Notes: generated by a model from the letters alone, not told the origin. Positions 157 through 48,029 are shown, counted from the first letter of the stretch. The stretch: DNA of 64,000 nt from an uncultured Gammaproteobacteria bacterium (GCA_964537315.1 CAZIAP010000003.1:75919-139918); one strand, 5' to 3'. Program-made: numbers and translations.

Positions 157-368
157 GTTTTTTCATAGCTTGTGTTACAGGCTTTCCAGGTATATTTTAG
201 ATCTTTCTATTTTGTGATATACTTCCACTCATTAATTCAATATCTTGATATTGTTTGAGATAGTTGAGTTCGTTCATTAAAATACAATGAGTAGCATGCT
301 GAAGCTCTTGTTCAGGGTTTGAGCGTGCTGCTCATGCGGGCAGGCATAAAATTAGAAAGGAAAAGAAT

Positions 369-1184
369 GTGATTGCGGACCTACTGCCTCGCTATTATGA
401 GGCATTTGGAAATGATGTCACTTATAACACTATTCACTCCTTTATCATTCAAGGACATGAAGTAGCTTGGATGGAAATGAGTGGGTATAATTACACTTTC
501 AGAAGCCTTCACTGTGAATGCTATTTCACAGAAGAAGTCGGCTGGAGAATTGACAACGGACGAATTAATCTTGAAGGCGAGAAGATATGTCTGTATAGAC
601 AGGCGATCATCCATCTGAGGCATCTCGAGCTTCGTCAAGAGTATCAGAAACGTTACCAATCAGACAGGATAGTAAGTCATTTACTTGGAAGTCTGAACCT
701 TAATACAGTTATTCTTGACTTAATGCAAAAAGTGAGAGATGGTGAGTTTATAGGAGAGGATGGAAGTGGAGCTGCTTTCTATGGAGGGTACTTTTACCTT
801 CAAACCGTAATGGCAATATCTGACATGCATCCAAAGCAGGTTTGGGAGGCTGCCAAACAGTTGGTTGAGGAGGGAAAGATCTCTCTTGAAGGATCAATTA
901 TCCAAGATTATCGCGAACCCCCTGCTCCTGAATGGACAGAAGAGTTCAGAATAGAAGAAGATGGTTGGGTAGGAATTGCACACTTACCGGCTCATTCAAA
1001 AATGACACAGGTGTGGAAGCTTGATGTAATGAGTGCAGATGGCTTAGAAGCCTCTGAGCCAAACTATGATTTACATCTTTCCCATCGTCCAGATTTTGGA
1101 CCTGATGTCGACGATGTCACAGAAGCTGAAATAAAACTTCAGCAACTAATTAGCCATGTGAAAATTGGCAACAAAGCACCGTAA
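369..1184 (+). CDS. hypothetical protein (271 aa)
   Basis: Long ORF with a GTG start and AAAGGAAAAG 5 nt upstream as RBS. No recognisable motif. Confidence 0.6.
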   Translation: MIADLLPRYYEAFGNDVTYNTIHSFIIQGHEVAWMEMSGYNYTFRSLHCECYFTEEVGWRIDNGRINLEGEKICLYRQAIIHLRHLELRQEYQKRYQSDRIVSHLLGSLNLNTVILDLMQKVRDGEFIGEDGSGAAFYGGYFYLQTVMAISDMHPKQVWEAAKQLVEEGKISLEGSIIQDYREPPAPEWTEEFRIEEDGWVGIAHLPAHSKMTQVWKLDVMSADGLEASEPNYDLHLSHRPDFGPDVDDVTEAEIKLQQLISHVKIGNKAP

Positions 1185-1913: not shown

Positions 1914-3140
1914 ATGAAACAACTTCTTGCTGTTGGATTTTTTTTAGTCCTGATTTTAGGTATCAGATTATATCTCCACTCAGTTCATCCTGCTAAATAT
2001 CAGCCCAATACTCATGTTGAAATTACTGGAATTATCTGGAATGAGCCACAAAGATATGGTCAGATACAGAAGGTGAAAGTGGATGATGTAGTGTTCGTCT
2101 TGCCTGAATACCCAAGGTATGAGTATGGACAAAAACTTAGTTTATCAGGAATTTTAGAAGAAAATACTTTTACTAGCAAAAGTGGAGAAGAGGTCACAGA
2201 GTTAGTTGTTAATAATCCTGAGATTCGTAAGGTTTCTACACCAATCATAATTGGACAAGCTGCATGGATGAGATCTCGCATTATCACAGTATTAACACGA
2301 GTGCTGCCTGTGGATGAAGCCGCTCTTTTACTAGGTGTGACCCTTGGTGTGCGAACTGAGTTCAGCGATGAGTTGCTCGATACCTTTACTCAGACGGGCA
2401 TCTTGCATGTAGTCGCAGCCTCAGGAAGTAACGTGGCTATAGTTGCAGGAGTCATGCTTTTTAGCCTTGAGAGAGTAACAAAGCGTAAGATCTCGATCCT
2501 GAGTACAGGGGCTGCTATCCTATGGTATGCCTTACTTGCTGGATTTGATCCTGCAATTATTCGAGCAAGCTTAATGGCGGTTATTGCCTTGACAGCACAG
2601 TTACTTGGTCGTCAGCGTATCTCTTATTTTATTTTACTACTTACTATATGGATAATGGTCATGGTAAGTCCAGATATCTGGAAAAATGTAGGATTTTTAC
2701 TTTCTGTATCTGCAACAGGTGGAATTATTACGTTAAAACCTTACTTTGATCATTTGTTCAGACGAGCAGGGTTTATTAAAGATGATTTGGGTACAACAAT
2801 CGCCGCTCAGTGGGGAAGTCTTCCGATTCTCGTTGGGACTTTTGGAAACTTTGCTCCTTTGTCCTTAATAGTAAACCTAGCGGTCTTATGGGTTGTGCCA
2901 TTAATTATGATACTTGGTTTATTATCTTCATTTGGAGCAATCATCTACCCAAGCCTCGCAATGCCATTTGCTTATATGGCATATCCTTTTTTATTTTTCT
3001 TTCTAGCAGTAGTCAAGGCGTCGTCCTATTTTGTTGAATCAATTTCAATCATAAAATTATCGCCACTGATATCTATATCATACTATTTCATTTCTATATC
3101 AATTATTCTATATCTAAAGCTAAATCATGTCAAAAGTTAA
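1914..3140 (+). CDS. comEC: ComEC/Rec2 N-terminal part (DUF4131-like OB region plus polytopic competence domain)
   Basis: Competence-domain signature GILHVVAASGSNVAIVAGVMLF and many TM helices. The ORF ends 14 nt inside the next ORF. Confidence 0.8.
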   Translation: MKQLLAVGFFLVLILGIRLYLHSVHPAKYQPNTHVEITGIIWNEPQRYGQIQKVKVDDVVFVLPEYPRYEYGQKLSLSGILEENTFTSKSGEEVTELVVNNPEIRKVSTPIIIGQAAWMRSRIITVLTRVLPVDEAALLLGVTLGVRTEFSDELLDTFTQTGILHVVAASGSNVAIVAGVMLFSLERVTKRKISILSTGAAILWYALLAGFDPAIIRASLMAVIALTAQLLGRQRISYFILLLTIWIMVMVSPDIWKNVGFLLSVSATGGIITLKPYFDHLFRRAGFIKDDLGTTIAAQWGSLPILVGTFGNFAPLSLIVNLAVLWVVPLIMILGLLSSFGAIIYPSLAMPFAYMAYPFLFFFLAVVKASSYFVESISIIKLSPLISISYYFISISIILYLKLNHVKS

Positions 3141-4032
3141 GCTGTGTATAGTATTAGGGTTTTTGTTGTTATTAATCCTTGCCACGTCACAATTACAGAA
3201 AAGTTTTGATGGCAAGCTGCACGTAGTGATATGCGATGTTGGCCAAGGAGATGCTATTTTTATTAGAACACCAGCCGGAAAGGAAATGATCATTGATGGA
3301 GGACCTGATGAATCTGTTTTAAGCTGTTTAGATGAATATAGACCTTTCTGGGATCGATCGTTAGATGTGATGGTGCTCACTCATCCTCATTATGATCATT
3401 TCAGAGGACTAATTGATGTATTGGATCGGTATGCTGTTAGATTGATACTCCAGGAACCAATAGATAATACTTCTGAGGCATATAAAGTGTTTACTCAAGC
3501 AGCTGAGAATGAGAAGTCTAACCTAAAGACCTCCACAAAAGGAACAACTATTATATTTGCTGATGGAGTAGAATTAAAAGTACTCGGACCTGATCAGGCA
3601 TTTCTCAGTAAGGAGAACCCAAGAGGCATTATAGGCAATGATAATCCGCCGTCACTCATTATGCATCTTTCATATAACTCATTTGATTTGTTACTAACTG
3701 GTGACAGTGATGGTCAAGATCTAGAAAGGTTTGTGCCTGCAGGACTATCAATAGATGCGTTAGTACTTCCTCATCATGGATCTAAAAATGGATATACACC
3801 TGCTGCTTCTAAGTATATTATACCAATAATTGGTATAATTTCTGCGGGTAAAGATAATTCATATGGTCACCCTCATCAGTCAGTACTCACAGAGTTACAA
3901 AAACATAACTCAGTTGTGCTGCGCACAGATTTGCAAGGCAATATCCATTTAATTATAGATAAAAACGGCAATATTTTTATCTCACCGGAGTCTAAGAGTT
4001 ATTCACCTATTGCAATTTTTCAATCTCAGTGA
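3127..4032 (+). CDS. comEC: ComEC C-terminal metallo-beta-lactamase domain protein (separate ORF)
   Basis: MBL motifs HVVICDVGQGDAIFI, VLTHPHYDHFRGL and LPHHGS. Own N-terminal hydrophobic anchor (LCIVLGFLLLLILATS). Overlaps the upstream ORF by 14 nt in a different frame. Confidence 0.8.
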   Translation: MSKVKLCIVLGFLLLLILATSQLQKSFDGKLHVVICDVGQGDAIFIRTPAGKEMIIDGGPDESVLSCLDEYRPFWDRSLDVMVLTHPHYDHFRGLIDVLDRYAVRLILQEPIDNTSEAYKVFTQAAENEKSNLKTSTKGTTIIFADGVELKVLGPDQAFLSKENPRGIIGNDNPPSLIMHLSYNSFDLLLTGDSDGQDLERFVPAGLSIDALVLPHHGSKNGYTPAASKYIIPIIGIISAGKDNSYGHPHQSVLTELQKHNSVVLRTDLQGNIHLIIDKNGNIFISPESKSYSPIAIFQSQ

Positions 4033-4067
4033 TAGTCTAAAGTTAGTTATCAATAAAACTAACAGAT

Positions 4068-4430
4068 ATGAAAATTCTTATAGTAGATGATGAAGTAGAG
4101 CTTGCGCAAGTTTTTGACGCTGCTCTCCGTGGCGCTGGTTATGAAGTTAAAATAGCCACTAATGGTAAAAGCGCGCTAGATATGGCAAAAGCAGAGCAGT
4201 TTGATCTGATAATGCTAGATCAGATGATGCCTGACATGTCAGGAAATGAAGTATTAAAAGCCTTGAAGGCAGATCCTGCTACTGCTACTTTTAAAGTTGC
4301 AATGCTTACAAACTTTGGTCACGATGAGATGGTGAAAGAGGCTCTCTTTGCCGGTGCAGTAGATTATATTCTCAAATATCAGGTATCAGGCGATGACATT
4401 GTTACAAAAGTAAAAAGTCTTATTGGCTAG
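4068..4430 (+). CDS. response regulator, receiver domain only (CheY-like)
   Basis: MKILIVDDE...D...LIMLDQMMPDMSG...K receiver motifs. No output domain (120 aa). Confidence 0.8.
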   Translation: MKILIVDDEVELAQVFDAALRGAGYEVKIATNGKSALDMAKAEQFDLIMLDQMMPDMSGNEVLKALKADPATATFKVAMLTNFGHDEMVKEALFAGAVDYILKYQVSGDDIVTKVKSLIG

Positions 4431-6530: not shown

Positions 6531-8051
6531 TTATTGTATAAATTTTTCAAGCAGTACCTGTTTGAGCTCTTGATTTAACCCATCATACCCAAGAGCCCAG
6601 ATCGCTACGCCTTGTAGACCTTTATTAAGTACAAAATCATATTTGAGTCCTAGTGACCGTGCGTTGTCAAAATGCGCCGTAAATTTACGGTCTGTATCGG
6701 GATCTTTATAAGAAAAGTAAGGGGTCTGACTAGTGCTGTTCCATTGTAGAGTGACATTTTTGCTCATATCTGATAGCTGGGCATAAGAGATCGCTTTCCC
6801 GGGCTCACCAGTGTCTGGCCAGGCATATCCGTAATAAGGTACAGCAAGTATTAGCTTATCAGCTGAAACTCTTTCAAGATAGCTTTGTATAAATCCTGCA
6901 ATTCCCATAGGCCCTTCAAGAGGTGCTACAGGCCCTGCAGAACCCTTTGGCGTATGAATATCGTATCCCATGATAATAAATGCGTCTAAGTGGTCTTCTA
7001 GAAGCGATATCTCAAAGAAATCATTACGTGCCCCTGCAGTTACGTAGGTATCGACAGTCAGTAGTGCATCCGGTACTTGTCTCTTAAGTTCCTCGTTAAG
7101 ATTCGCGATTAGACGAATAAACCCTTGTTTGGTTTTTTCTGGCGCTACACCGATATACTCAAAATCTATATTTATTCCATCGAGGGATTTACTTTGAACA
7201 AGCTGCACAGCATTTGAAATAAATCTTTCTTGAGCTTGGTCAGACGTGGTTACACTCTCTATATTTGTATTATCAAACGCTTTAATAGTAACTAACACCT
7301 TAATTTTACGCTTCTTGACCCGTGCGAGAAATGAGTTTAATTTTTTATCATTCCACATCTTCCAACCTAGGTCAGGATTTTCTCCTCGGCTTATCATAAT
7401 ATTTCCCTTCCCGTCTGTTTCAAGGCCGAACAAATTTATTGACGTAAGCCCTTGAATATCTATTTGCTCCTCTCGTTCAAGCATCCAATAAGGGAAAAAG
7501 CCAACAACTTCCTTAGTTGGCTCTCCAGCGTATTTCAGAGTAATATTTGTAGCAGGGAAGGAAAAAACAGTATCCGGATTAAGCGGAGTCTGATTAGCAT
7601 ATACCACGTCTGGAGCAAGGACATCAAAAGGCTGATTTATGCTTGCAACTTCAACTATCTGATCTGAAAGAGGTAAGGACTTGTCAGTGAATGATACTCT
7701 GTGAAGTGTAAGTAGACTACCTACTGAAAAGATCACAATTATTGACGCTACTGTAGCTGTTCTTTTGTTAATTTTTGCTTTTAACTTTTGCTTAATCGAA
7801 GGCTCTTCTGGTTGGATTTCTTGAGTTTTTGGAGTTGAAGGAGTGAACTGGATTAAATTATCACTTTCAATCTCGGACAGAGCTTGGTGGAACTCGTCTT
7901 CAGTCACACCGATTTCCCTAGCATAGTCAACTGCTTGTTCGAACGAACTAGAAGGGTGGGAAATAATCCACTCTTTTATAAGTCTTATGCGGACAGGGTT
8001 ATTCATATGATTAAACGCATAAACTATATGCTGTAATTTCAGTATGCACAA
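6531..8051 (-). CDS. membrane-anchored glycoside hydrolase family 18-like protein
   Basis: GH18 catalytic-type motif LDGINIDFEY (DxxNxDxE). Cytoplasmic N-terminus, one TM helix (VASIIVIFSVGSLLTL), then the extracellular domain. The true start may be an internal Met. Confidence 0.7.
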   Translation of the reverse strand: MCILKLQHIVYAFNHMNNPVRIRLIKEWIISHPSSSFEQAVDYAREIGVTEDEFHQALSEIESDNLIQFTPSTPKTQEIQPEEPSIKQKLKAKINKRTATVASIIVIFSVGSLLTLHRVSFTDKSLPLSDQIVEVASINQPFDVLAPDVVYANQTPLNPDTVFSFPATNITLKYAGEPTKEVVGFFPYWMLEREEQIDIQGLTSINLFGLETDGKGNIMISRGENPDLGWKMWNDKKLNSFLARVKKRKIKVLVTIKAFDNTNIESVTTSDQAQERFISNAVQLVQSKSLDGINIDFEYIGVAPEKTKQGFIRLIANLNEELKRQVPDALLTVDTYVTAGARNDFFEISLLEDHLDAFIIMGYDIHTPKGSAGPVAPLEGPMGIAGFIQSYLERVSADKLILAVPYYGYAWPDTGEPGKAISYAQLSDMSKNVTLQWNSTSQTPYFSYKDPDTDRKFTAHFDNARSLGLKYDFVLNKGLQGVAIWALGYDGLNQELKQVLLEKFIQ

Positions 8052-12278: not shown

Positions 12279-12308
12279 CCCCTGCCAATAAAGGCAGGGG
12301 ATTTTTCT
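12279..12308 (+). terminator. Rho-independent terminator
   Basis: CCCCTGCC-AATAAA-GGCAGGGG hairpin followed by ATTTTTCT. Confidence 0.75.
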
Positions 12309-13238: not shown

Positions 13239-14012
13239 TTATAGAAGGATGAAGAGAAAAAAGAGAATAGAAAGAACAATCCTATAGATACCGAATGGAA
13301 TAAATGTATTCGTCTGAATAAATTTAAGTAGCCATCGCATTGTCACTAATGCAACACCAAATGAGAGGACTACGCCTAGTCCTAAATGCATCAAATTTTG
13401 CTGTGTCAGTACGTGCGTTGATTGGAGCATGTCGTAACCGCTAGCTGCAATCATTGTAGGTATGGCAAGCATAAAAGAGAATTCTACTGCTGAGCGACGA
13501 TTTAGTCCAAGCAAAAGTCCTCCCATGATGGTAGCCGCAGCTCGTGATACTCCGGGGATAACTGATATGGACTGGAAGAGTCCTATGAAAAATGCTTCAC
13601 GTACAGTTATTGTTTTGAGTGTTAGCTTGGTGCCTTTTTCCTCACCGATCTTTTTTTCAAGTAGAATCAGAGCGATACCTCCGATAAATAACGCTGCCAC
13701 CGTTATATACTCATTACCTATTAGTATATTTTTTATGATGCTGTATCCGGCAAACCCCACAATTGCAGCAGGAACAAAAGCTACCACTAACTTATTCAGT
13801 AGGCCTCGATTTTGAATAATCATTTTACCGTACAAAAATACGGCAGCAAGTATGGCTCCAAGCTGTATTACTACTACAAATGTTTTTACGAAATCAGTTT
13901 GTTCAACGCCTAGAAGTTTAGTAGTTAATACTAAGTGTCCTGTAGACGAGATAGGCAAGAACTCGGTGACTCCTTCAACGATTGAAAGAATTATAACGTC
14001 TAATAAGTCCAT
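13239..14012 (-). CDS. uppP: undecaprenyl-diphosphatase UppP (BacA)
   Basis: MDLLDVIILSIVEGVTEFLPISSTGHL signature; polytopic membrane protein. Confidence 0.9.
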   Translation of the reverse strand: MDLLDVIILSIVEGVTEFLPISSTGHLVLTTKLLGVEQTDFVKTFVVVIQLGAILAAVFLYGKMIIQNRGLLNKLVVAFVPAAIVGFAGYSIIKNILIGNEYITVAALFIGGIALILLEKKIGEEKGTKLTLKTITVREAFFIGLFQSISVIPGVSRAAATIMGGLLLGLNRRSAVEFSFMLAIPTMIAASGYDMLQSTHVLTQQNLMHLGLGVVLSFGVALVTMRWLLKFIQTNTFIPFGIYRIVLSILFFLFILL

Positions 14013-14132: not shown

Positions 14133-14148
14133 TCCGCCAGCTGGCGGA
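14133..14148. repeat. 16-bp perfect palindrome TCCGCCAGCTGGCGGA (copy 1 of 3)
   Basis: Exact reverse-complement symmetry. GC-rich island in AT-rich intergenic DNA. Confidence 0.7.
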
Positions 14149-14608
14149 TTAGGAATTAGAAATTTATAATGTAATAGCTCGGTAAGACCAACTAAATGAT
14201 TCATTAATTAACGTTGATACATATTTTGATATGGATGATGATTCTTGACAGAAATGACCTACAAGCCTATACTGGAGACGCTCTTAAGTGGTGTGAGGAG
14301 ACATGGTATGTTTTCCTCTACATATTTCTCTGAGCTTGGGGTATTTCTCGGTTTTTTCGGGAGAGACGAGATGATTTGTGTATCACCCCGTGGGGTAATG
14401 CCAGCATCTTCCCGATTAAAGTACAGGGGAATCTCCATGAATCTGACCCTCTTAGGAGCGGGATTTATTCATTACGTAAGCTGCCTTAACTAATATTAAA
14501 CCGCAAAAGCCGCAAGCTTCTCTCTTTTTATTGATTTTTGATACAATACAGTAATTCGCCGACCTTGCTCATTTATAAGCTAGGTAAGCGTGTAAATTAA
14601 AATTATGC

Positions 14609-14683
14609 GCCGATGTAACTCAGGGGTAGAGTAGCTCTTTCGTAAAGAGCAAGTCGTGGGTTCGAATCCCACCATCGGCTCCA
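14609..14683 (+). tRNA. tRNA-Thr(CGT): tRNA-Thr (anticodon CGT)
   Basis: Cloverleaf: acceptor GCCGATG/CATCGGC, anticodon arm GCTCT-TTCGTAA-AGAGC, T-arm GTGGG-TTCGAAT-CCCAC, 3' CCA encoded. Confidence 0.85.
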
Positions 14684-15058: not shown

Positions 15059-15107
15059 CCCCGTCTTCAGTGGAAACCCCACTGGAGGCGGGGTTTTCTT
15101 TTTTACT
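15059..15107 (+). terminator. Rho-independent terminator (15-bp stem then TTTTCTTTTTTACT)
   Basis: CCCCGTCTTCAGTGG / CCACTGGAGGCGGGG pair with two G-U wobbles, followed by a T-run. Confidence 0.8.
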
Positions 15108-15913
15108 CATCTAATACTATAACAATATCGCTTTCCACGACGGTGTTAGCGCTTCATTCATTTCACAAACTTAAACTATTGTCATTTTCACACCTGTTCT
15201 ACTTTTTTTCGTAATTTGGTAAGGATTTTGATTGATTTGCAGAAACTCTTACATTTAGCATGATCAAGCTTAAATTAGCCTCAAAAATCGTCAAAATATA
15301 TGTATACAAAAATAGTACAAAATGGCATTTGACCCCTTGACAAGCCTAGTGGCATATGGTTAATTATCTATACGAGGCTAACTTTTCACAAAGTCCTCTA
15401 AAAGTACTTAACTAGAAATATGAAAAAACTAAACGTACTGTTCACAAATTTTCTAAAACGGCGTGTCGCAGACGTTTCAGGCTTTTTCCAGTTGTGGATC
15501 ATTGTTCCATAATTGATAAGAGCGGGAAATGTCAGGTTAGTATATCGCGTGGCAGGAATTACGATATACAAATTAATAACAAAACGCTTTTGAAATAGGA
15601 TATGGCTGTTTGGGGAGAAGTTCGGGCTCCCCAAGCGGCAATTTTCTCGCCAAGGTGAGAATATCCGGTGATAAATAATACCCGTTGCACCTTGTACCTA
15701 CCGCCGTGTAGGGGCCCTGCAGAGCAGGGCATGTAAAATAATCCTCCTCTGGAGGACTTCGCTTATCTAAAAACAAGATAAGCTTCTTCAGATATGTCCT
15801 GATTTTTTTCAGGATCCGCTAAATAATATAAAAAATGACGCATGGAATTTGCGGAGGTTTTTTGCTACAATCATGCAGCATAACCCTTCGCGTATTTGTG
15901 TTGCTGAAATCAA

Positions 15914-22390: not shown

Positions 22391-22618
22391 CTATTTGATA
22401 GGCAGGTTCACCTGCCGAATCTTCTCTGTCCTTATGCCTGGATTGAGGTACTCATCAGGAAGATCAATATAAGGAGAGCAGTACTGCTCCTGGTCTGGAG
22501 TAAGGTCCATCATCCTTGTGAGCTTTTTGCAAGTCTTGCAGAACCCAAAACGATCGATTTTCGTTCCCTGGCAATGAACGCAACTCATGCTTATTTTTCT
22601 CCCCTTCGAAGAAAACAC
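22391..22618 (-). CDS. small Cys-rich (Zn-ribbon-like) hypothetical protein
   Basis: CVHCQGTK...FCKTCKK pattern. Start uncertain. Confidence 0.35.
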   Translation of the reverse strand: MFSSKGRKISMSCVHCQGTKIDRFGFCKTCKKLTRMMDLTPDQEQYCSPYIDLPDEYLNPGIRTEKIRQVNLPIK

Positions 22619-22791: not shown

Positions 22792-23541
22792 TTACCTACA
22801 AAGTGAGTTACAAGCTATGCCGTCATTATTACCATCAAGATTTTTGCATCCACACTGGTTTAACTGGAATGTTGCTTCTGCGCACGTTGTAATGACTGAG
22901 CATGTTTTGCTGCAATCACATGTAAACGAAGAAGGGGAAGAAGGAGAGGATGAAGAAGATGTTTGACACGATCCCCACAGGCCAATATTTTTTTCTCTTG
23001 CTTGTTGCTCAAGTGTATCAAGTTGATCCTGGTATTTGATGTCAGGAGGATAAGCAGAGGAGTGAGCATAACCTTCACGAACGAGCATTTCATTTACCAT
23101 TTCTCCGCTTTGAAGATACACATATCGTAATAACCTGCCGTATCTATCCGTATCTGAAACATCTTTTTCCAAATATACTGTTTTTCCGGTCACTAGAATT
23201 TTATTATAATCGCTTGCCTCTTTCCCAAAGCACTGTACAGGTCGCCTGGGATCTACAGTTTCAGGTGTGTCTATACCTATATATCTGAGTGTTCTACCAT
23301 CTGTGAGTTTTATTGTGTCTCCATCTACGACTGAGGCTATGGACACTTCTTCAAGATTCTTTTCTCCCAGTACTGTTTGTGATAGGTCGTTATTAGCTTG
23401 AGTGGGTTTAGAGGAACTTGTAGGTGTAGGTAGGGCGTTCGTAAGTAATTCTGGATTTGTCTGTAGCTTATTATGGGTAAGAGTACTGATAGTGATCAGT
23501 AGGCTTGCAATAATCAGCAAAAAAGGTAGTTTTTTTATCAT
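22792..23541 (-). CDS. secreted thermonuclease (SNase-like) with C-terminal Cys-rich Excalibur-like Ca-binding domain
   Basis: Signal/TM at N-terminus. SNase motifs VVDGDTIKLTDGRTLRYIGIDTPE...RYGRLLRYVY...EMLVREGYA. Tail ...CGCKNLDGNNDGIACNSLC resembles the Excalibur DxDxDGxxCE motif. Confidence 0.8.
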   Translation of the reverse strand: MIKKLPFLLIIASLLITISTLTHNKLQTNPELLTNALPTPTSSSKPTQANNDLSQTVLGEKNLEEVSIASVVDGDTIKLTDGRTLRYIGIDTPETVDPRRPVQCFGKEASDYNKILVTGKTVYLEKDVSDTDRYGRLLRYVYLQSGEMVNEMLVREGYAHSSAYPPDIKYQDQLDTLEQQAREKNIGLWGSCQTSSSSSPSSPSSFTCDCSKTCSVITTCAEATFQLNQCGCKNLDGNNDGIACNSLCR

Positions 23542-23626: not shown

Positions 23627-23646
23627 GGCGGGGGAATTCCCCCGCC
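23627..23646 (-). terminator. GC hairpin GGCGGGGG-AATT-CCCCCGCC, probable terminator of the minus-strand genes 23646..24371
   Basis: Perfect 8-bp GC stem. On the minus strand it is followed by an A/T-rich tract with TTTTTTG about 20 nt later. Confidence 0.45.
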
Positions 23647-23867: not shown

Positions 23868-24371
23868 TTACTTTAAGCTATAACGGCGTATTCTCTCATC
23901 AATTTTTCTAGATAAAAATACTGCCCCTCCATAGGATAAAATCCAACAGAAAGAAAGAAGAATTCCCAATTTTAGTTCATCATCTTTTATTCCGATTAAT
24001 AGTATTGAGACCGCATAATAAACTCCAGACAAGATCAAAAAGAAGGTGATGAAGTTTCTCTGATTAGTCTTTATGCTAGGATTCCTTTGAATCTCCTTAC
24101 TAAAAATGAAGTACTGAATCAAAATTCCCAAATAGTCTGGAAGTTCTTCATCTGACAAATCTCTTTCCTTTAATGGTGGGCGGGTCTTTGTCAGAAAAAC
24201 ATTAACTATGGCGATACTCCCCTCTAAAATTAAGGCTAACAGTAAACCAAATATTAGTCCTAGGTACAAAATTAAGGTAACCTCGTCTGCTGAACCAAGA
24301 AGCCTGTGCAAAACAACAATTGCACAAATGATTACAGCGCTGAAAACAACTCTGTACAACCAATACTTCAC
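23868..24371 (-). CDS. hypothetical polytopic membrane protein (167 aa)
   Basis: Four predicted hydrophobic helices. Confidence 0.55.
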   Translation of the reverse strand: MKYWLYRVVFSAVIICAIVVLHRLLGSADEVTLILYLGLIFGLLLALILEGSIAIVNVFLTKTRPPLKERDLSDEELPDYLGILIQYFIFSKEIQRNPSIKTNQRNFITFFLILSGVYYAVSILLIGIKDDELKLGILLSFCWILSYGGAVFLSRKIDERIRRYSLK

Positions 24372-28880: not shown

Positions 28881-28897
28881 AACGCAATTGTTTATTG

Positions 28898-28968
28898 CAG
28901 GGTCGCCGGGACTCGAACCCAGAAGAGGGGTTTTGGAGACCCCCATGATACCATTTCATCACGACCCT
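28898..28968 (-). tRNA. tRNA-Trp(CCA): tRNA-Trp (anticodon CCA)
   Basis: Reverse complement folds: acceptor AGGGTCG/CGACCCT, D-stem ATGA/TCAT, anticodon arm GGGGT-CTCCAAA-ACCCC, T-arm CTGGG-TTCGAGT-CCCGG. Confidence 0.8.
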
Positions 28969-28972
28969 TCGG

Positions 28973-28988
28973 TCCGCCAGCTGGCGGA
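28973..28988. repeat. 16-bp perfect palindrome TCCGCCAGCTGGCGGA (copy 2 of 3)
   Basis: Identical to the copy at 14133. Lies 4 nt from the 5' end of tRNA-Trp. Confidence 0.7.
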
Positions 28989-29047
28989 TTCAGAGTTGTA
29001 CCCTAAGTAGGTAAAGGTATTATAAGGAAATTACAGTTGGCTTGCAA

Positions 29048-29977
29048 TTAATCAGCAGCGGCAGAGTAGTGTTCGTTACGTCTTTTTTGAGGGTGAGAGT
29101 CAAAGTATGCTGGTGAATTATTCAACTCATTTACGATACTCATCGATGCGTACCAGATTTCATTTGAAGAAATTGGAACCCTGACTAACTCACATTTTTC
29201 ATTACTAAACGGCGTGTCATGCTCTGTAGTAGTTACTAAAATTGCTTTAAAAGCTCCTGAATCGTAGGCAAGCTTTGGAGGTAGTTCAGGTCGCATTGAG
29301 TGAATCGCATTTGCTACTTTTTCCTGGATATTGGGTGGCTGTCTTGTAAAGAGATCATAGACTACTTTTCCAGAAGTGTGAAGTTTAAGTTGCTTTCTTT
29401 TATCCTTATTCATAATTCTGTATGGCATTTCCATATCTCCTAGGTTCGTCCTTATTGTGTATTCGCAGCTTCCCACAATGTATGATTTATTTTTTACCGG
29501 TTGGAGTACTAAACCATCAGGAACAGTTCTAAATCGTTCTTTGATATTTTCTTGGATGCCAGTAATATTACTAAGTTGGCGCGTCTCTTGTGGGGTGAGT
29601 AGGATTGAGTTGTCTTGAATCCCTTCTGCTAAGTACCGATGAGCAACTTCTTCAAATATAAATCCAGATAGTGCATTTTCTAGCCCCATTCTGCTATTAT
29701 CTGGAATCTCAGAACGGTGTAGTTTTCGTTGTAACTTTACTAAGTTTTGCTGAAAAAATGTATCTTCAAAAACCGGTAGGAGCAAATCTCTCACCTGAAG
29801 ATCACGTGTACTGAGAAAATCGTATGTTTCAGGTAACGGAATACCTGGGTGTTCTTTTGTATATGATGGAATCGGAAATTCGTGATGGGGAGGTGTGACG
29901 CCAGTTTCTTCAGTCGCCAAAAAAGATATCTCAGGTGAACTTACTTGACCATGATATGCAGCAAACTCTTTAGCCAA
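29048..29977 (-). CDS. hypothetical protein (309 aa)
   Basis: ORF only. Confidence 0.55.
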   Translation of the reverse strand: MAKEFAAYHGQVSSPEISFLATEETGVTPPHHEFPIPSYTKEHPGIPLPETYDFLSTRDLQVRDLLLPVFEDTFFQQNLVKLQRKLHRSEIPDNSRMGLENALSGFIFEEVAHRYLAEGIQDNSILLTPQETRQLSNITGIQENIKERFRTVPDGLVLQPVKNKSYIVGSCEYTIRTNLGDMEMPYRIMNKDKRKQLKLHTSGKVVYDLFTRQPPNIQEKVANAIHSMRPELPPKLAYDSGAFKAILVTTTEHDTPFSNEKCELVRVPISSNEIWYASMSIVNELNNSPAYFDSHPQKRRNEHYSAAAD

Positions 29978-37903: not shown

Positions 37904-37915
37904 TTATTGGTTCAT

Positions 37916-37931
37916 TCCGCCAGTTGGCGGA
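37916..37931. repeat. 16-bp palindrome variant TCCGCCAGTTGGCGGA (copy 3 of 3, one central mismatch)
   Basis: Differs from the other two copies only by C to T at the centre. Sits between galU and the cupin gene. Confidence 0.65.
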
Positions 37932-37948
37932 TCACGGTTCTTAGTGTT

Positions 37949-38338
37949 ATGAAAATAGTCCGCAGTTCAGAACTCCAATTTATTCCTTCCTCTCATGAAG
38001 ATCCGAATAAACCAAATGTAATAAAGAAAGTTCTGCTTGAAAAAACAGGTCTTCTCCCTGGACGTGTACAAATGGTTAACTGGGCACAGTTACAACCGAA
38101 TTCTACGTTTGAGGCTCATTATCACGAAGATATGACTGAGGTTTTCCTCATAATCGAGGGCGAAGTTACTATGAACATCGCAGGTGAGGAAGTAAGTGTT
38201 AAAAAAGGAGATGCAGTAGTAGTGGAGCCAAACGAGGTCCATACTATGACCAACCATACGGATCAACCGCTTGAGTATATAGTTTTTGGGGTTAGCCAAG
38301 AAAAAGACGGAAAAACAGTGTTAGTTACTAGTTCATAG
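37949..38338 (+). CDS. cupin domain protein
   Basis: HYHEDMTEVFLIIEGE...GDAVVVEPNEVH two-motif cupin pattern. Start moved to the ATG at 37949, downstream of the palindrome. Confidence 0.7.
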   Translation: MKIVRSSELQFIPSSHEDPNKPNVIKKVLLEKTGLLPGRVQMVNWAQLQPNSTFEAHYHEDMTEVFLIIEGEVTMNIAGEEVSVKKGDAVVVEPNEVHTMTNHTDQPLEYIVFGVSQEKDGKTVLVTSS

Positions 38339-46136: not shown

Positions 46137-46199
46137 CTATGTGGGATTGTATCAAATACTCAAAGAGAGGACAAGCAAAAGTGAGGTGATAATTGTATG

Positions 46200-46272
46200 T
46201 ACCGATGGAGAGAGTCGAACTCTCAGTCTTACCCTTAGGACGGGTCTGCTTTATCCATTAAGCTATAACAGC
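46200..46272 (-). tRNA. tRNA-Arg(CCT)-like gene with a weak acceptor stem (divergent copy or pseudogene)
   Basis: Reverse complement: D-arm GCTT-AATGGATA-AAGC, anticodon arm GACCC-GTCCTAA-GGGTA, T-arm GAGAG-TTCGACT-CTCTC. Only 5 of 7 acceptor pairs (GCTGTTA vs CATCGGT), two of them G-U. Confidence 0.5.
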
Positions 46273-46312
46273 TAGTATTTTCAGCTAATTGCAATTATTT
46301 GTTTCATGATTT

Positions 46313-47794
46313 TTATATTGCTGTGACAGTATCGATCAGCTCAGGAATCCAGAATTGAATTCTGTTTTCCGGAAGTAAAAGTGCTCGATTAGGTTGTAGC
46401 TCTTCTACAAACTCGGGGGTGTGGCTCACAAAAAGCATAGCGCCAGTATAGCTTTTTAAGGCATCTAAAATAATACGTTGTGAGAGTACATCAAGATAAG
46501 TTGTTGGTTCATCTAATATGAGCAAGTTAAAATTTTGTAGCATAAGCATTGCTATGGAAAGTCTTGTTTTTTCACCACCAGATAATGTGCCTACTTTTTG
46601 ATAAATGCGAGGTCCGGGAAAGTTGAACTTTGTCATAACAGGGCGGATTGCCTGCTCAGGGAGGTCTGAGACCTTCTGTACATTCTCGACAATAGTTTTA
46701 TCGAAATCAAAGGTTTCAAACTCTTGTGAATAGTATCCAATTTTTAGATTCTCATCACGTTTAACCTCTCCTGCATCGGGTGATAGTCTGCCCATAAGAA
46801 TTTTGATAAACGTGCTTTTTCCGGCACCGTTAGGCCCAATTAAAGCTATACGTTCTCCTCGGACAATCGAAAGAGAAATATCAGCAAGCACCATATCGTA
46901 GTCGTACATTTTAACAATGTTGGAAGCCTTGATCGGTATTTCTCCTACGGGGTGTGGGGTAGGTAAGATAATTTTTGTACGTTTAATTTCTTTTGGTAGT
47001 TCCGGAAGTGACTCTTTGAGATTTTCTATTCTCTTGCGTAACATTGTGCGTTGTCTGACGCCTTTTTTTGATTTATTGCGAGACATTTTTCGTAGACCTT
47101 CTTCCATGTGCTTAATGTGCTTTTGCTCATTGATGATTTTACGTTTTTCCAGCGCATCTTTTTCAGCCTTTAATGCAAGATATTTTGTGTAGTTTCCGGT
47201 GTATTCTTCAAGTTTATGCGTGATTGGATTGAGAGCGAGCACTTTGTTGATGCGAGCGTCTAGTAACGGGAGATCATGTGAAATTACAATCAATGTTTTC
47301 GGATATTGTCCGAGAAAGTCCATTACCCATCTTTTTCCTGCAGTATCAAGAAAGTTGGTTGGTTCATCAAGCATCAGAATATCCGGTTCTTCTAACAAAG
47401 CACGCAGTAGAGCAAGTTTAGTCTTTTCTCCACCACTGCAGCTCTTGGGAATTGTTTGCAGATCAATATCGGTCATTTCAAGTTCACGGATCATCTCCAT
47501 TAACTCAAAATCGCTTACTTTTTTATGAGGGTCTACAAACTCTCTAACGGATGTGCATTTTTCTAAAACTGGATCGTGTTTGATTTCCTGAGGGACATAT
47601 CCAATTGTTCCAGTTACTTCAATCTTTCCGGCTGATGGAGCATCGATTCCTTGGAGGAGCTTAAGTAATGTTGATTTACCTGCTCCGTTTGGTCCTACGA
47701 GACCAATCTTTCGCTTATTACCAACAGTAAAACTGATATCGTCAAAAACAGGACCAAAGCCATATGAATATGATAAATTTTTAACGTGAATCAT
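46313..47794 (-). CDS. ABC-F family ATPase (two ABC domains joined by a charged linker; EttA/Uup/ARE-type)
   Basis: Two Walker A motifs (GPNGAGKST twice), two LSGGE signatures, and an inter-domain linker rich in K/R/E. Start taken at the internal ATG (MIHVKNLSYSYG). Confidence 0.85.
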   Translation of the reverse strand: MIHVKNLSYSYGFGPVFDDISFTVGNKRKIGLVGPNGAGKSTLLKLLQGIDAPSAGKIEVTGTIGYVPQEIKHDPVLEKCTSVREFVDPHKKVSDFELMEMIRELEMTDIDLQTIPKSCSGGEKTKLALLRALLEEPDILMLDEPTNFLDTAGKRWVMDFLGQYPKTLIVISHDLPLLDARINKVLALNPITHKLEEYTGNYTKYLALKAEKDALEKRKIINEQKHIKHMEEGLRKMSRNKSKKGVRQRTMLRKRIENLKESLPELPKEIKRTKIILPTPHPVGEIPIKASNIVKMYDYDMVLADISLSIVRGERIALIGPNGAGKSTFIKILMGRLSPDAGEVKRDENLKIGYYSQEFETFDFDKTIVENVQKVSDLPEQAIRPVMTKFNFPGPRIYQKVGTLSGGEKTRLSIAMLMLQNFNLLILDEPTTYLDVLSQRIILDALKSYTGAMLFVSHTPEFVEELQPNRALLLPENRIQFWIPELIDTVTAI

Positions 47795-47846
47795 GAGGTT
47801 GATTATCTCGAATTTAGGCGTAAATTGCAAAAAACAAGCAAGTGGG

Positions 47847-47919
47847 TAGCCCCGAGAGGAGTCGAACCTCCAACCTTTCCCTTAGGACGGGACTGCTCTA
47901 TCCATTGAGCTACGGGGCC
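47847..47919 (-). tRNA. tRNA-Arg(CCT): tRNA-Arg (anticodon CCT)
   Basis: Reverse complement: acceptor GGCCCCG/CGGGGCT (G1-U72), D-arm GCTC-AATGGATA-GAGC, anticodon arm GTCCC-GTCCTAA-GGGAA, T-arm GGAGG-TTCGACT-CCTCT. Confidence 0.8.
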
Positions 47920-48029
47920 ATATCTAGCCACAAGTATAGCATGAATGTAGTTTATAGTTAATGGTTATTGGTATGTGTTATATAAGATTTAACCATGATC
48001 TATGAACTAAAAACTATCAACTAACATTG

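Follow-up and report, generated by a model that had tools for sequence, protein, structure and literature searches.

A 16-nt G+C-rich palindrome, TCCGCCAGCTGGCGGA, is found three times in a 64-kb stretch of DNA (hereafter the window, meaning the whole stretch that was analyzed) with a G+C content of 38.1%. The question raised by this locus is what kind of sequence such a dispersed dyad represents: the binding site of a regulator, a signal acting in RNA, or a small piece of inserted DNA. The initial annotation regarded the dyad as the footprint of a dimeric DNA-binding protein and listed a small REP-like element and an RNA processing signal as alternatives. The evidence presented here favors the REP-like alternative, and we propose, with modest confidence, that the 16-mer is a very small insertional hairpin element, G+C-rich in AT-rich host genomes, and not a regulator's binding site.

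Three copies of the palindrome lie outside genes in the window

The palindrome is exact at 14133–14148 (copy 1) and at 28973–28988 (copy 2), while the copy at 37916–37931 (copy 3) carries a C to T change at the ninth base and therefore has the loop AGTT instead of AGCT. A pattern search of the 64-kb window with up to three mismatches returned these three matches and no more. In dinucleotide-preserving shuffles, the mean was 0.07 matches, and none of 100 shuffles reached three. Perfect 6-bp stems are found in just nine G+C-rich hairpins of the window, three of which are the 16-mer palindrome. The three dispersed copies reported in the initial annotation were thereby confirmed, by the search as well as by inspection of the sequence at each site.

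All three copies are located outside genes, and the gene and tRNA coordinates agreed with the placement first described. Copy 1 is situated in a divergent spacer, with uppP (minus strand, 13239–14012) on one side and a candidate noncoding RNA and tRNA-Thr (plus strand) on the other. It is upstream of uppP, whose start is 120 nt away, and precedes tRNA-Thr(CGT) at 14609 by 460 nt; the direct repeat TTAG adjoins it on each side. Copy 2 belongs to the 5' leader of pre-tRNA-Trp. It is separated by 4 nt from the mature 5' end of tRNA-Trp(CCA) (28897–28968, minus strand, identified by tRNA search) and by 59 nt from the stop codon of the preceding minus-strand ORF (29048–29977). Copy 3 is found in the 45-nt spacer that separates the galU stop (37903) from the ATG of a cupin gene (37949), 12 nt past the former and 17 nt ahead of the latter, and is spanned by a mechanically called ORF with a TTG start (37907–38338), as had been noted. 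The left and right flanks are ttag/ttag at site 1, tcgg/ttca at site 2, and tcat/tcac at site 3. A conserved T had been proposed on both sides; it holds for the 3' base in three of three copies, while the 5' base is G, G, and T at sites 1, 2, and 3, respectively.

The copy at site 1 is also present, with the same flank, in an independent assembly from another sequencing run (L181, SRR7082976), so the palindrome is not an artifact of a single assembly. This contig of the same organism ends 3 nt past the palindrome (positions 1–20 of L181), and palindromes of this kind may break short-read assemblies.

Several other features were observed in the window. A strong promoter-like site (TTGACA, 17-nt spacer, TATACT) is present at 14245–14273 on the plus strand, and a noncoding stretch of about 185 nt at 14278–14461 (plus strand) is 72% identical across three Levybacteria genomes. 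The 5' and 3' ends of this stretch pair with each other, its hairpins carry compensatory substitutions, and it has no Rfam match; located just upstream of tRNA-Thr(CGT), it is possibly a 6S-like candidate structured RNA. Four short hairpins are clustered upstream of tRNA-Thr(TGT) at 15700–15830 (plus strand), and two of them, TCCTCCtctGGAGGA at 15742 and TCCTGAttttttTCAGGA at 15797, have TCC at the beginning and GGA at the end. At 23627–23646, in the spacer between a staphylococcal-nuclease-like gene (22792–23541, minus strand) and an ORF at 23868–24371, there is a perfect G+C-rich palindrome of 20 bp, GGCGGGGGAATTCCCCCGCC, its arms having the opposite polarity to those of the 16-mer, with the G-rich arm first. 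In addition, hairpins built on CCTGCC/GGCAGG arms are found at 12281–12298 and 22401–22416. CTGCC and CCTGC stems (18 and 7 hairpins, e.g. cctgcctgccggcaggcagg) rank second in frequency among the G+C-rich hairpins of the AT-rich loci retrieved from other phyla, and the CCTGCC/GGCAGG-arm hairpins may constitute a sister family.

The palindrome is absent from the orthologous regions of related genomes

Homologues of GalU and UppP place the window in Candidatus Levybacteria (CPR, Patescibacteria). We compared it with syntenic DNA from three relatives among the Levybacteria (L176 and L180; L177 and L179; L178), about 80 kb in total, which covers all three site regions and in which GalU is 86–89% and UppP 72–77% identical to the window proteins. 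Neither a CCGCC..GGCGG hairpin nor any other recurrent G+C-rich palindrome was found in these 80 kb. The comparison with relatives that the initial annotation had called for thus went against a conserved signal, the 16-mer being missing from all three orthologous regions.

An empty counterpart of site 3 is present in L178, which reads gttagTTCAT-AGT-TCACGGTaattATG, versus gttagttattggTTCAT-(16-mer)-TCACGGTtcttagtgttATG in the window; in short form, TTCAT-AGT-TCACGGT corresponds to TTCAT-(16-mer)-TCACGGT. The 16-mer therefore stands in for three bases (AGT). The galU–cupin spacer of the other relatives contains an unrelated hairpin followed by a T-run (L176) or no hairpin (L177), and neither has the 16-mer.

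At site 2, the minus strand of L177 reads TTGCAA-17 nt-TATAAT-acctttagtcaat-AGGGTCGTGATG, running into tRNA-Trp, versus TTGCAA-17 nt-TATAAT-acctttacctactt-AGGGTacaactctgaa-(16-mer)-ccga-AGGGTCGTGATG in the window. Comparing the two leaders, TATAAT-acctttagtcaat-AGGGTCGTG in L177 corresponds to TATAAT-acctttacctactt-(36 nt)-AGGGTCGTG. Since the leader of L177 is without the 36-nt block (28969–29004, minus strand; AGGGT-acaactctgaa-(palindrome)-ccga), these nucleotides have been added between the conserved promoter and the mature tRNA-Trp. The leader measures 49 nt in the window and 13 nt in L177. The first five nucleotides of the block, AGGGT, are also the first five of tRNA-Trp, a repeat that suggests a target duplication or a residual tRNA 5' fragment. 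The promoter-like site itself (TTGCAA, 17-nt spacer, TATAAT; 29019–29047, minus strand) is conserved in L177 and in two contigs retrieved at the DNA level with the 5' half of tRNA-Trp as query, L187 and L188. As copy 2 is downstream of this site, it would be transcribed with tRNA-Trp, in the part of the 5' leader that is removed by RNase P. L187 and L188, in which the tRNA-Trp 5' half is identical, carry a different, AT-rich hairpin (cttttgc..gcaaaatg) between promoter and tRNA, which implies that the leader tolerates insertions; hairpins have been inserted there recurrently. A protein-based metagenome search for relatives of the ORF beside tRNA-Trp returned none.

At site 1, the palindrome is absent from L179 and L180, and no clean empty site is available because the surrounding spacer cannot be aligned between genomes. 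Overall, L177 provides an empty site 2 and L178 an empty site 3, and the palindrome is lacking at site 1 in L179 and L180. Judged from these comparisons, the three window copies appear to be lineage-specific insertions.

The same 16-mer occurs in several phyla with its pairing conserved

In a scan of one genome per species, at least 120 loci with the 16-mer were identified. Among the matches listed, about 40 are from CPR and about 32 from Bacteroidota, as counted by record titles, and further carriers belong to Cloacimonadota, Neomarinimicrobiota, Elusimicrobiota, and KSB1. The genome of a cultured isolate, Mucilaginibacter flavidus RT5R15, also contains copies. Several AT-rich loci have two to four copies each within 8 kb, and the density is about one per 7–20 kb. 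In loci with less than 50% G+C, 68 of 98 copies are intergenic. The matches in high-G+C genomes (Streptomyces and similar) are located in ORFs in 32 of 41 cases and look like chance matches inside coding sequence. As a control for enrichment, we used a viral collection and three palindromes of identical composition: 16 of the 55 matches to the 16-mer on viral contigs were in DNA below 50% G+C, versus 3 of 21, 3 of 47, and 1 of 80 for the controls. No paper containing the 16-mer sequence was found in the literature searched.

Variation among the copies is concentrated at the center. At least 12 different loops, 3 to 5 nt long, are present, and those outside the constraint of the search pattern include TCC, CCCT, TTT, GGCT, GGTT, AACC, CACT, ATTTT, and AGT. 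Double mutants of the stem that keep all six pairs number 14, versus 0.6 in shuffles, and one-sided stem changes number 7, versus 1.2. It is the pairing that is conserved rather than the sequence. Because the spacing is variable and the stems are compensated, a folded single strand is favored over a duplex site with fixed spacing for a dimer. The commonest flanks are TC on the left and GA on the right. Moreover, in 28 of 124 copies the flanks pair with each other and add 5 bp or more to the stem, versus 2.9 expected from permuted flanks, and some of the extended copies resemble bidirectional terminators, such as aaaaaatcc-(16-mer)-ggatttttt in L063.

Copies are found in RNA genes, tRNA fragments, and proteins

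In the RNase P RNA gene of a Cyclobacteriaceae genome (L105 4274–4680, minus strand; 270 bits against Rfam RF00010), P3 and P12 both consist of the identical 16-mer. In four genomes, partial tRNA copies lie beside the intact gene and have a loop or arm replaced by the 16-mer (tRNA-Cys in L005, tRNA-Met in L065, tRNA-Lys in L078, and tRNA-Asn in L086). L005 has two tandem tRNA-Cys fragments, one of them with the loop CCCT. In L065 (Flavobacteriales, 180–790, minus strand), tRNA-Met fragments occur on both sides of the intact gene, and they carry up to three different hairpins, located in the D, variable, and T loops; in one of these hairpins, TCCCGAT-AGAT-ATCGGGA, the loop consists of the original D-loop bases. 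In L086 (Wolfebacteria, 2180–2545, minus strand), an 88-residue GIY-YIG ORF is bracketed by two tRNA-Asn 5' fragments, in each of which the 16-mer has replaced the D-loop. This ORF is directly upstream of the intact tRNA-Asn, and its last codons overlap a copy of the tRNA 5' end. Site 2 of the window has the same layout as these broken-tRNA loci, in miniature.

Elsewhere in the window, at 46199–47920 on the minus strand, two tRNA-Arg(CCT) genes (46199–46272 and 47843–47920) flank a 505-residue ABC-F type ATPase ORF (46313–47830), which looks like a tRNA duplicated around one gene. An enrichment of the 16-mer next to tRNA genes was considered and rejected: seven copies are within 150 nt of a tRNA, site 2 included, which by our estimate is about what intergenic placement alone would give. 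Group I tRNA introns of Patescibacteria were also rejected as an explanation, since PMC13011429 mentions no hairpin or palindrome. The 3' end of tRNA-Ser, ..TCCGCCA, which is universally conserved, equals the left arm and first loop base of the 16-mer; the likeness stops there, and the loop variants do not keep CCA. The tRNA-Ser 3' end as a template is a lead only.

Among the 18 copies in long ORFs, 15 are translated in a single frame, as xPPAGG. The proteins include CysRS as well as others that, from recognized sequence motifs, we take to be glutamate dehydrogenase, a UvrD-type helicase, and KsgA. In the CysRS of Saccharibacteria, the PPAGG segment is a net insertion of four residues that is missing in most of 60 aligned homologues. 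The 16-mer encoding it, T CCG CCA GCT GGC GGA, is nucleotide-identical in three lineages whose proteins are 66–72% identical, and the synonymous sites next to it differ between these lineages. In L009, L182, and L183 the site contains the 16-mer, and in L185 and L186 it is empty; the closest relative of one carrier (81% identical) is without the insertion. A fourth lineage (L184) has a different perfect palindrome, TCCGCTGGCCAGCGGA, at the same spot, with the peptide PPLASG; one stem pair is changed on both sides and the center is different, with the symmetry kept. The recurring unit is thus a nucleic acid and not a peptide, because the L184 palindrome encodes another peptide and the 16-mer of the carriers is identical at the nucleotide level. 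Such a pattern could arise if insertion recurs at a hot spot that tolerates it, or if the DNA sequence is maintained.

A maintained DNA signal or an RNA hairpin as alternatives

The second of these possibilities leads to the reading of the 16-mer as a DNA signal under selection, either the site of a dimeric protein (of the parS, Noc, or MatP kind, or an operator) or a DNA uptake sequence in competent CPR. Such a signal would account for the perfect 16-bp dyad, for a single sequence in many phyla, for the exact identity in CysRS despite diverged synonymous neighbors, and for the symmetry kept in the L184 variant. The moderate density of the copies and the bias of those in genes to one reading frame, as in uptake sequences, agree with it as well. 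However, not a single copy is present in the 80 kb of syntenic DNA from three relatives, and the distribution among CysRS lineages is patchy, the nearest relative having an empty site. Loops of 3, 4, and 5 nt, together with compensated stems that are far above chance, are a better fit to a folded strand, and solo half-sites are only weakly enriched. An operator would be expected to keep its position in relatives and its spacing; the 16-mer is absent from the three orthologous regions, and its spacing is variable. The copies have no gene neighborhood in common, the three window sites share no gene function, and some copies form the tips of RNA-gene hairpins or are translated into protein loops. 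The footprint of a dimeric protein, as first proposed, is therefore unsupported, and we judge a selected DNA signal to be improbable.

We consider a functional RNA hairpin, acting as a terminator or attenuator, as a stabilizer of mRNA 3' ends, or as a processing signal (for example in a tRNA precursor), to be about equally improbable. The RNA hairpins of the window copies are stable, with predicted energies between -10.8 and -15.7 kcal/mol when flanks are included (site 1: plus strand -14.7 kcal/mol, minus strand -10.8; site 2: minus strand -15.7), and about one-fifth of the copies elsewhere cap longer stems, some of them with A- and T-runs (L063, L113, and L114). Outside the window, a terminator or processing role would suit a minority of copies. 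Copy 3, 12 nt past the galU stop, is placed as a terminator could be. The window copies have no U-run, though, even though the genome possesses canonical terminators, for instance near 15060–15105. Scans for intrinsic terminators detected none at sites 2 and 3 and a marginal minus-strand one at site 1, ahead of uppP, where a lax scan flags 5 T in 8 bases; the lack of a T-run noted in the initial annotation was accordingly upheld. Site 1 lies in a divergent upstream region, which does not suit a terminator, nor do the translated copies inside long ORFs suit a signal in RNA. At the gathering threshold of Rfam, only tRNAs match in the window, and around site 1 there is no match at E-values up to 1. 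The processing signal that had been listed as an alternative is weakly compatible with the data: copy 2 falls within the leader transcript of tRNA-Trp, but relatives manage without this hairpin there, as they do at the other sites.

Target bases are replaced, and GIY-YIG genes lie beside some copies

In most pairs of empty and filled sites, 3–10 nt of the target are replaced. Direct repeats of at least 3 nt adjoin 9 of 124 copies, versus 3.1 expected, and no regular target-site duplication is consistent among the 124. Classical transposition is doubtful because 3–10 target bases are replaced and direct repeats are weakly enriched. A 10-bp direct repeat in L047 was rejected as a target duplication because its removal would break the reading frame. 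A larger element shared by the window copies was likewise rejected, as their flanks are unrelated. No long element bounded by the half-sites TCCGCCAG ... CTGGCGGA was found; solo half-sites number about 23, versus about 6 by a rough composition estimate, and are mostly decayed copies or chance.

Small GIY-YIG ORFs are located no more than 121 nt from a copy in L086, L075, and L041, which are all three loci in which such genes were detected, and two remnants were also found. With three loci and a rough p value of about 0.01, the association is suggestive. In L075 (Mucilaginibacter flavidus, 3700–4420 and 6990–7180), a GIY-YIG gene lies amid numerous copies of the motif GTCATTGCGAGGAACGAAGCAA, in which the 16-mer is embedded and tagged by CGTAG/CTACG. 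None of the window ORFs tested encodes a transposase, RAYT, or GIY-YIG protein; for RAYT, 10 unassigned ORFs were compared with Pfam and 10 with NCBIfam, with no match.

The replacement of 3–10 nt without regular duplication could also be explained by a repair scar. A short tail, ..TCCGCCAGCT, would be added to both 3' ends of a double-strand break, or be left behind by an excising element with ends of this kind, and the ends would be joined via the self-complementary AGCT, giving a perfect palindrome and a small loss of target bases. Variation that is greatest at the center, and copies at the junctions of partial tRNA duplications beside genes for homing-endonuclease-type nucleases, would be in keeping with this scheme. 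It is, however, pure inference; compensatory stem variants are unexpected from a fixed tail, and an element bounded by half-sites was searched for without success. We therefore hold a repair scar to be very doubtful. Chance or an assembly artifact is extremely improbable: although the carriers are mostly metagenome-assembled genomes and the L181 contig breaks off just past a palindrome, shuffles predict 0.07 copies, the site-1 copy is found in two independent assemblies, a cultured isolate carries copies, and control palindromes of matched composition are not enriched in AT-rich DNA.

A proposed insertional hairpin

The explanation we favor remains the insertion of a very small hairpin element. 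It is supported by the non-random occurrence of the 16-mer, its absence in relatives, two empty-site comparisons, the spread of contexts, and the conserved pairing. According to this proposal, the 16-mer would be one copy type of a tiny hairpin-forming repeat that is inserted into AT-rich genomes, often swapping out a few target bases. Copies would persist only in places where a stable hairpin (6-bp stem, 4-nt loop) is harmless, namely in intergenic spacers, at the tips of existing hairpins (terminators, RNA-gene helices, and dead tRNA arms), and in surface loops of proteins, where the insertion would read Pro-Pro-Ala-Gly-Gly. In the window, the insertions would have entered a divergent promoter spacer, the pre-tRNA-Trp leader, where the hairpin would be cut away by RNase P, and the galU–cupin spacer. 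We infer that the element spreads by mobility in trans, and the mobilizing enzyme could be a nuclease that recognizes structure, for which the small GIY-YIG proteins encoded beside some copies are candidates. For the host, the insertions are probably neutral or of slight effect. The counterpoint to insertion is that the sequence is identical across phyla, and also in CysRS genes with diverged synonymous sites, which could mean selection on the DNA.

A broader version of this proposal, which we put forward tentatively and think rather unlikely, is that the 16-nt hairpin is a cross-phylum mobile unit, the smallest known, that homes to hairpin loops in DNA and RNA genes and to surface loops of proteins. 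Its identity in CPR, Bacteroidota, Elusimicrobiota, and phages would then be due to a universal template or a conserved enzyme, with small stand-alone GIY-YIG nucleases as candidates. The window copies themselves are ordinary relics, and the interest lies in their family.

If the proposal holds, CPR and Bacteroidota genomes carry selfish or neutral hairpin insertions of which no description was found in the literature searched, and the element remodels intergenic DNA, protein loops, and RNA genes, including that of RNase P RNA. The insertions could serve as a marker of recent events in unculturable organisms and would be a possible cause of breaks in metagenome assemblies, one contig ending just past a copy. 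For annotators, it would be a caution that such dyads are not automatically operators or terminators. Since the same sequence is present in several phyla, the mechanism of its spread is a testable question, and a cultivable carrier, Mucilaginibacter flavidus, exists.

Comparison with known elements

REPs are imperfect palindromes of 20–40 bp with a GTAG or CGTC tag at one end, are specific to families or species, and reach hundreds of copies; GTAG-type REPs are linked to RAYT transposases, and intragenic REPs were surveyed by Di Nocera et al. 2013, who also mention the Rickettsia palindromic elements (RPEs) (PMC3733652). The 16-mer resembles REPs and BIMEs in being a short, dispersed, G+C-rich hairpin palindrome that is mostly extragenic with some copies in genes, is patchy between relatives, and may, as is thought of REPs, be non-autonomous mobile DNA. 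It differs from them in that the unit is a perfect palindrome of 16 bp with the same sequence in several phyla, and no RAYT gene was seen among the window ORFs tested. REPs reach tens to hundreds of extragenic copies per genome, and the 64 kb of the window contain three copies of the 16-mer. No GTAG or CGTC tag accompanies the window copies, and among about 100 copies elsewhere GTAG/CTAC is regular only in L075.

A second parallel is offered by the palindromic GC clusters of yeast mitochondria, such as GC42, which are sporadic among close relatives, have substitutions biased to the loop, and have been proposed to rely on endonuclease helpers (Wu and Hao 2015, PMC4478555). These clusters, together with related hairpin elements in the mitochondria of fungi and sponges, share with the 16-mer a G+C-rich hairpin in an AT-rich genome, a sporadic distribution, and stems that are kept while loops vary. 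Genes for rRNA and proteins are also among the insertion sites of mitochondrial GC clusters. However, they are organellar, about 30–50 nt long, and accompanied by an AG target duplication, whereas the 16-mer is bacterial, 16 nt long, and has a weak and irregular duplication.

RPEs are palindromic repeats found in frame in protein genes, the function of which is kept, as well as in noncoding DNA. They are about 100–150 bp long, restricted to one genus, and add 30–50 residues to a protein, in contrast to the net four residues and several phyla seen here. IS1397 and ISKpn1 target the loops of REPs, and the IS200/IS605 family is known for single-strand transposition. A preference for hairpin tips and a dependence on folded single-stranded DNA may be features in common with the 16-mer, and we regard these analogies as leads only; the insertion sequences are full elements with transposase genes, of which none was found here among the window ORFs tested. 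Uptake sequences, which are known for a reading-frame bias in genes, are similar in that the DUS of Neisseria and the USS of Pasteurellaceae are over-represented short motifs, also occur in genes with such a bias, and form terminator-like hairpins when paired as inverted repeats. They occur about once per kb and are shared family-wide, whereas the 16-mer is found about once per 7–20 kb, with 3 copies in 64 kb of the window, and is absent from sister species, with none in about 80 kb of three relatives.

Overall, the 16-mer has what characterizes mobile hairpins in the broad sense, presence or absence at orthologous sites and stem pairing kept with varying loops, and it differs from REPs, RPEs, and GC clusters in its 16-nt size, its perfect symmetry, and the occurrence of one sequence in several phyla.
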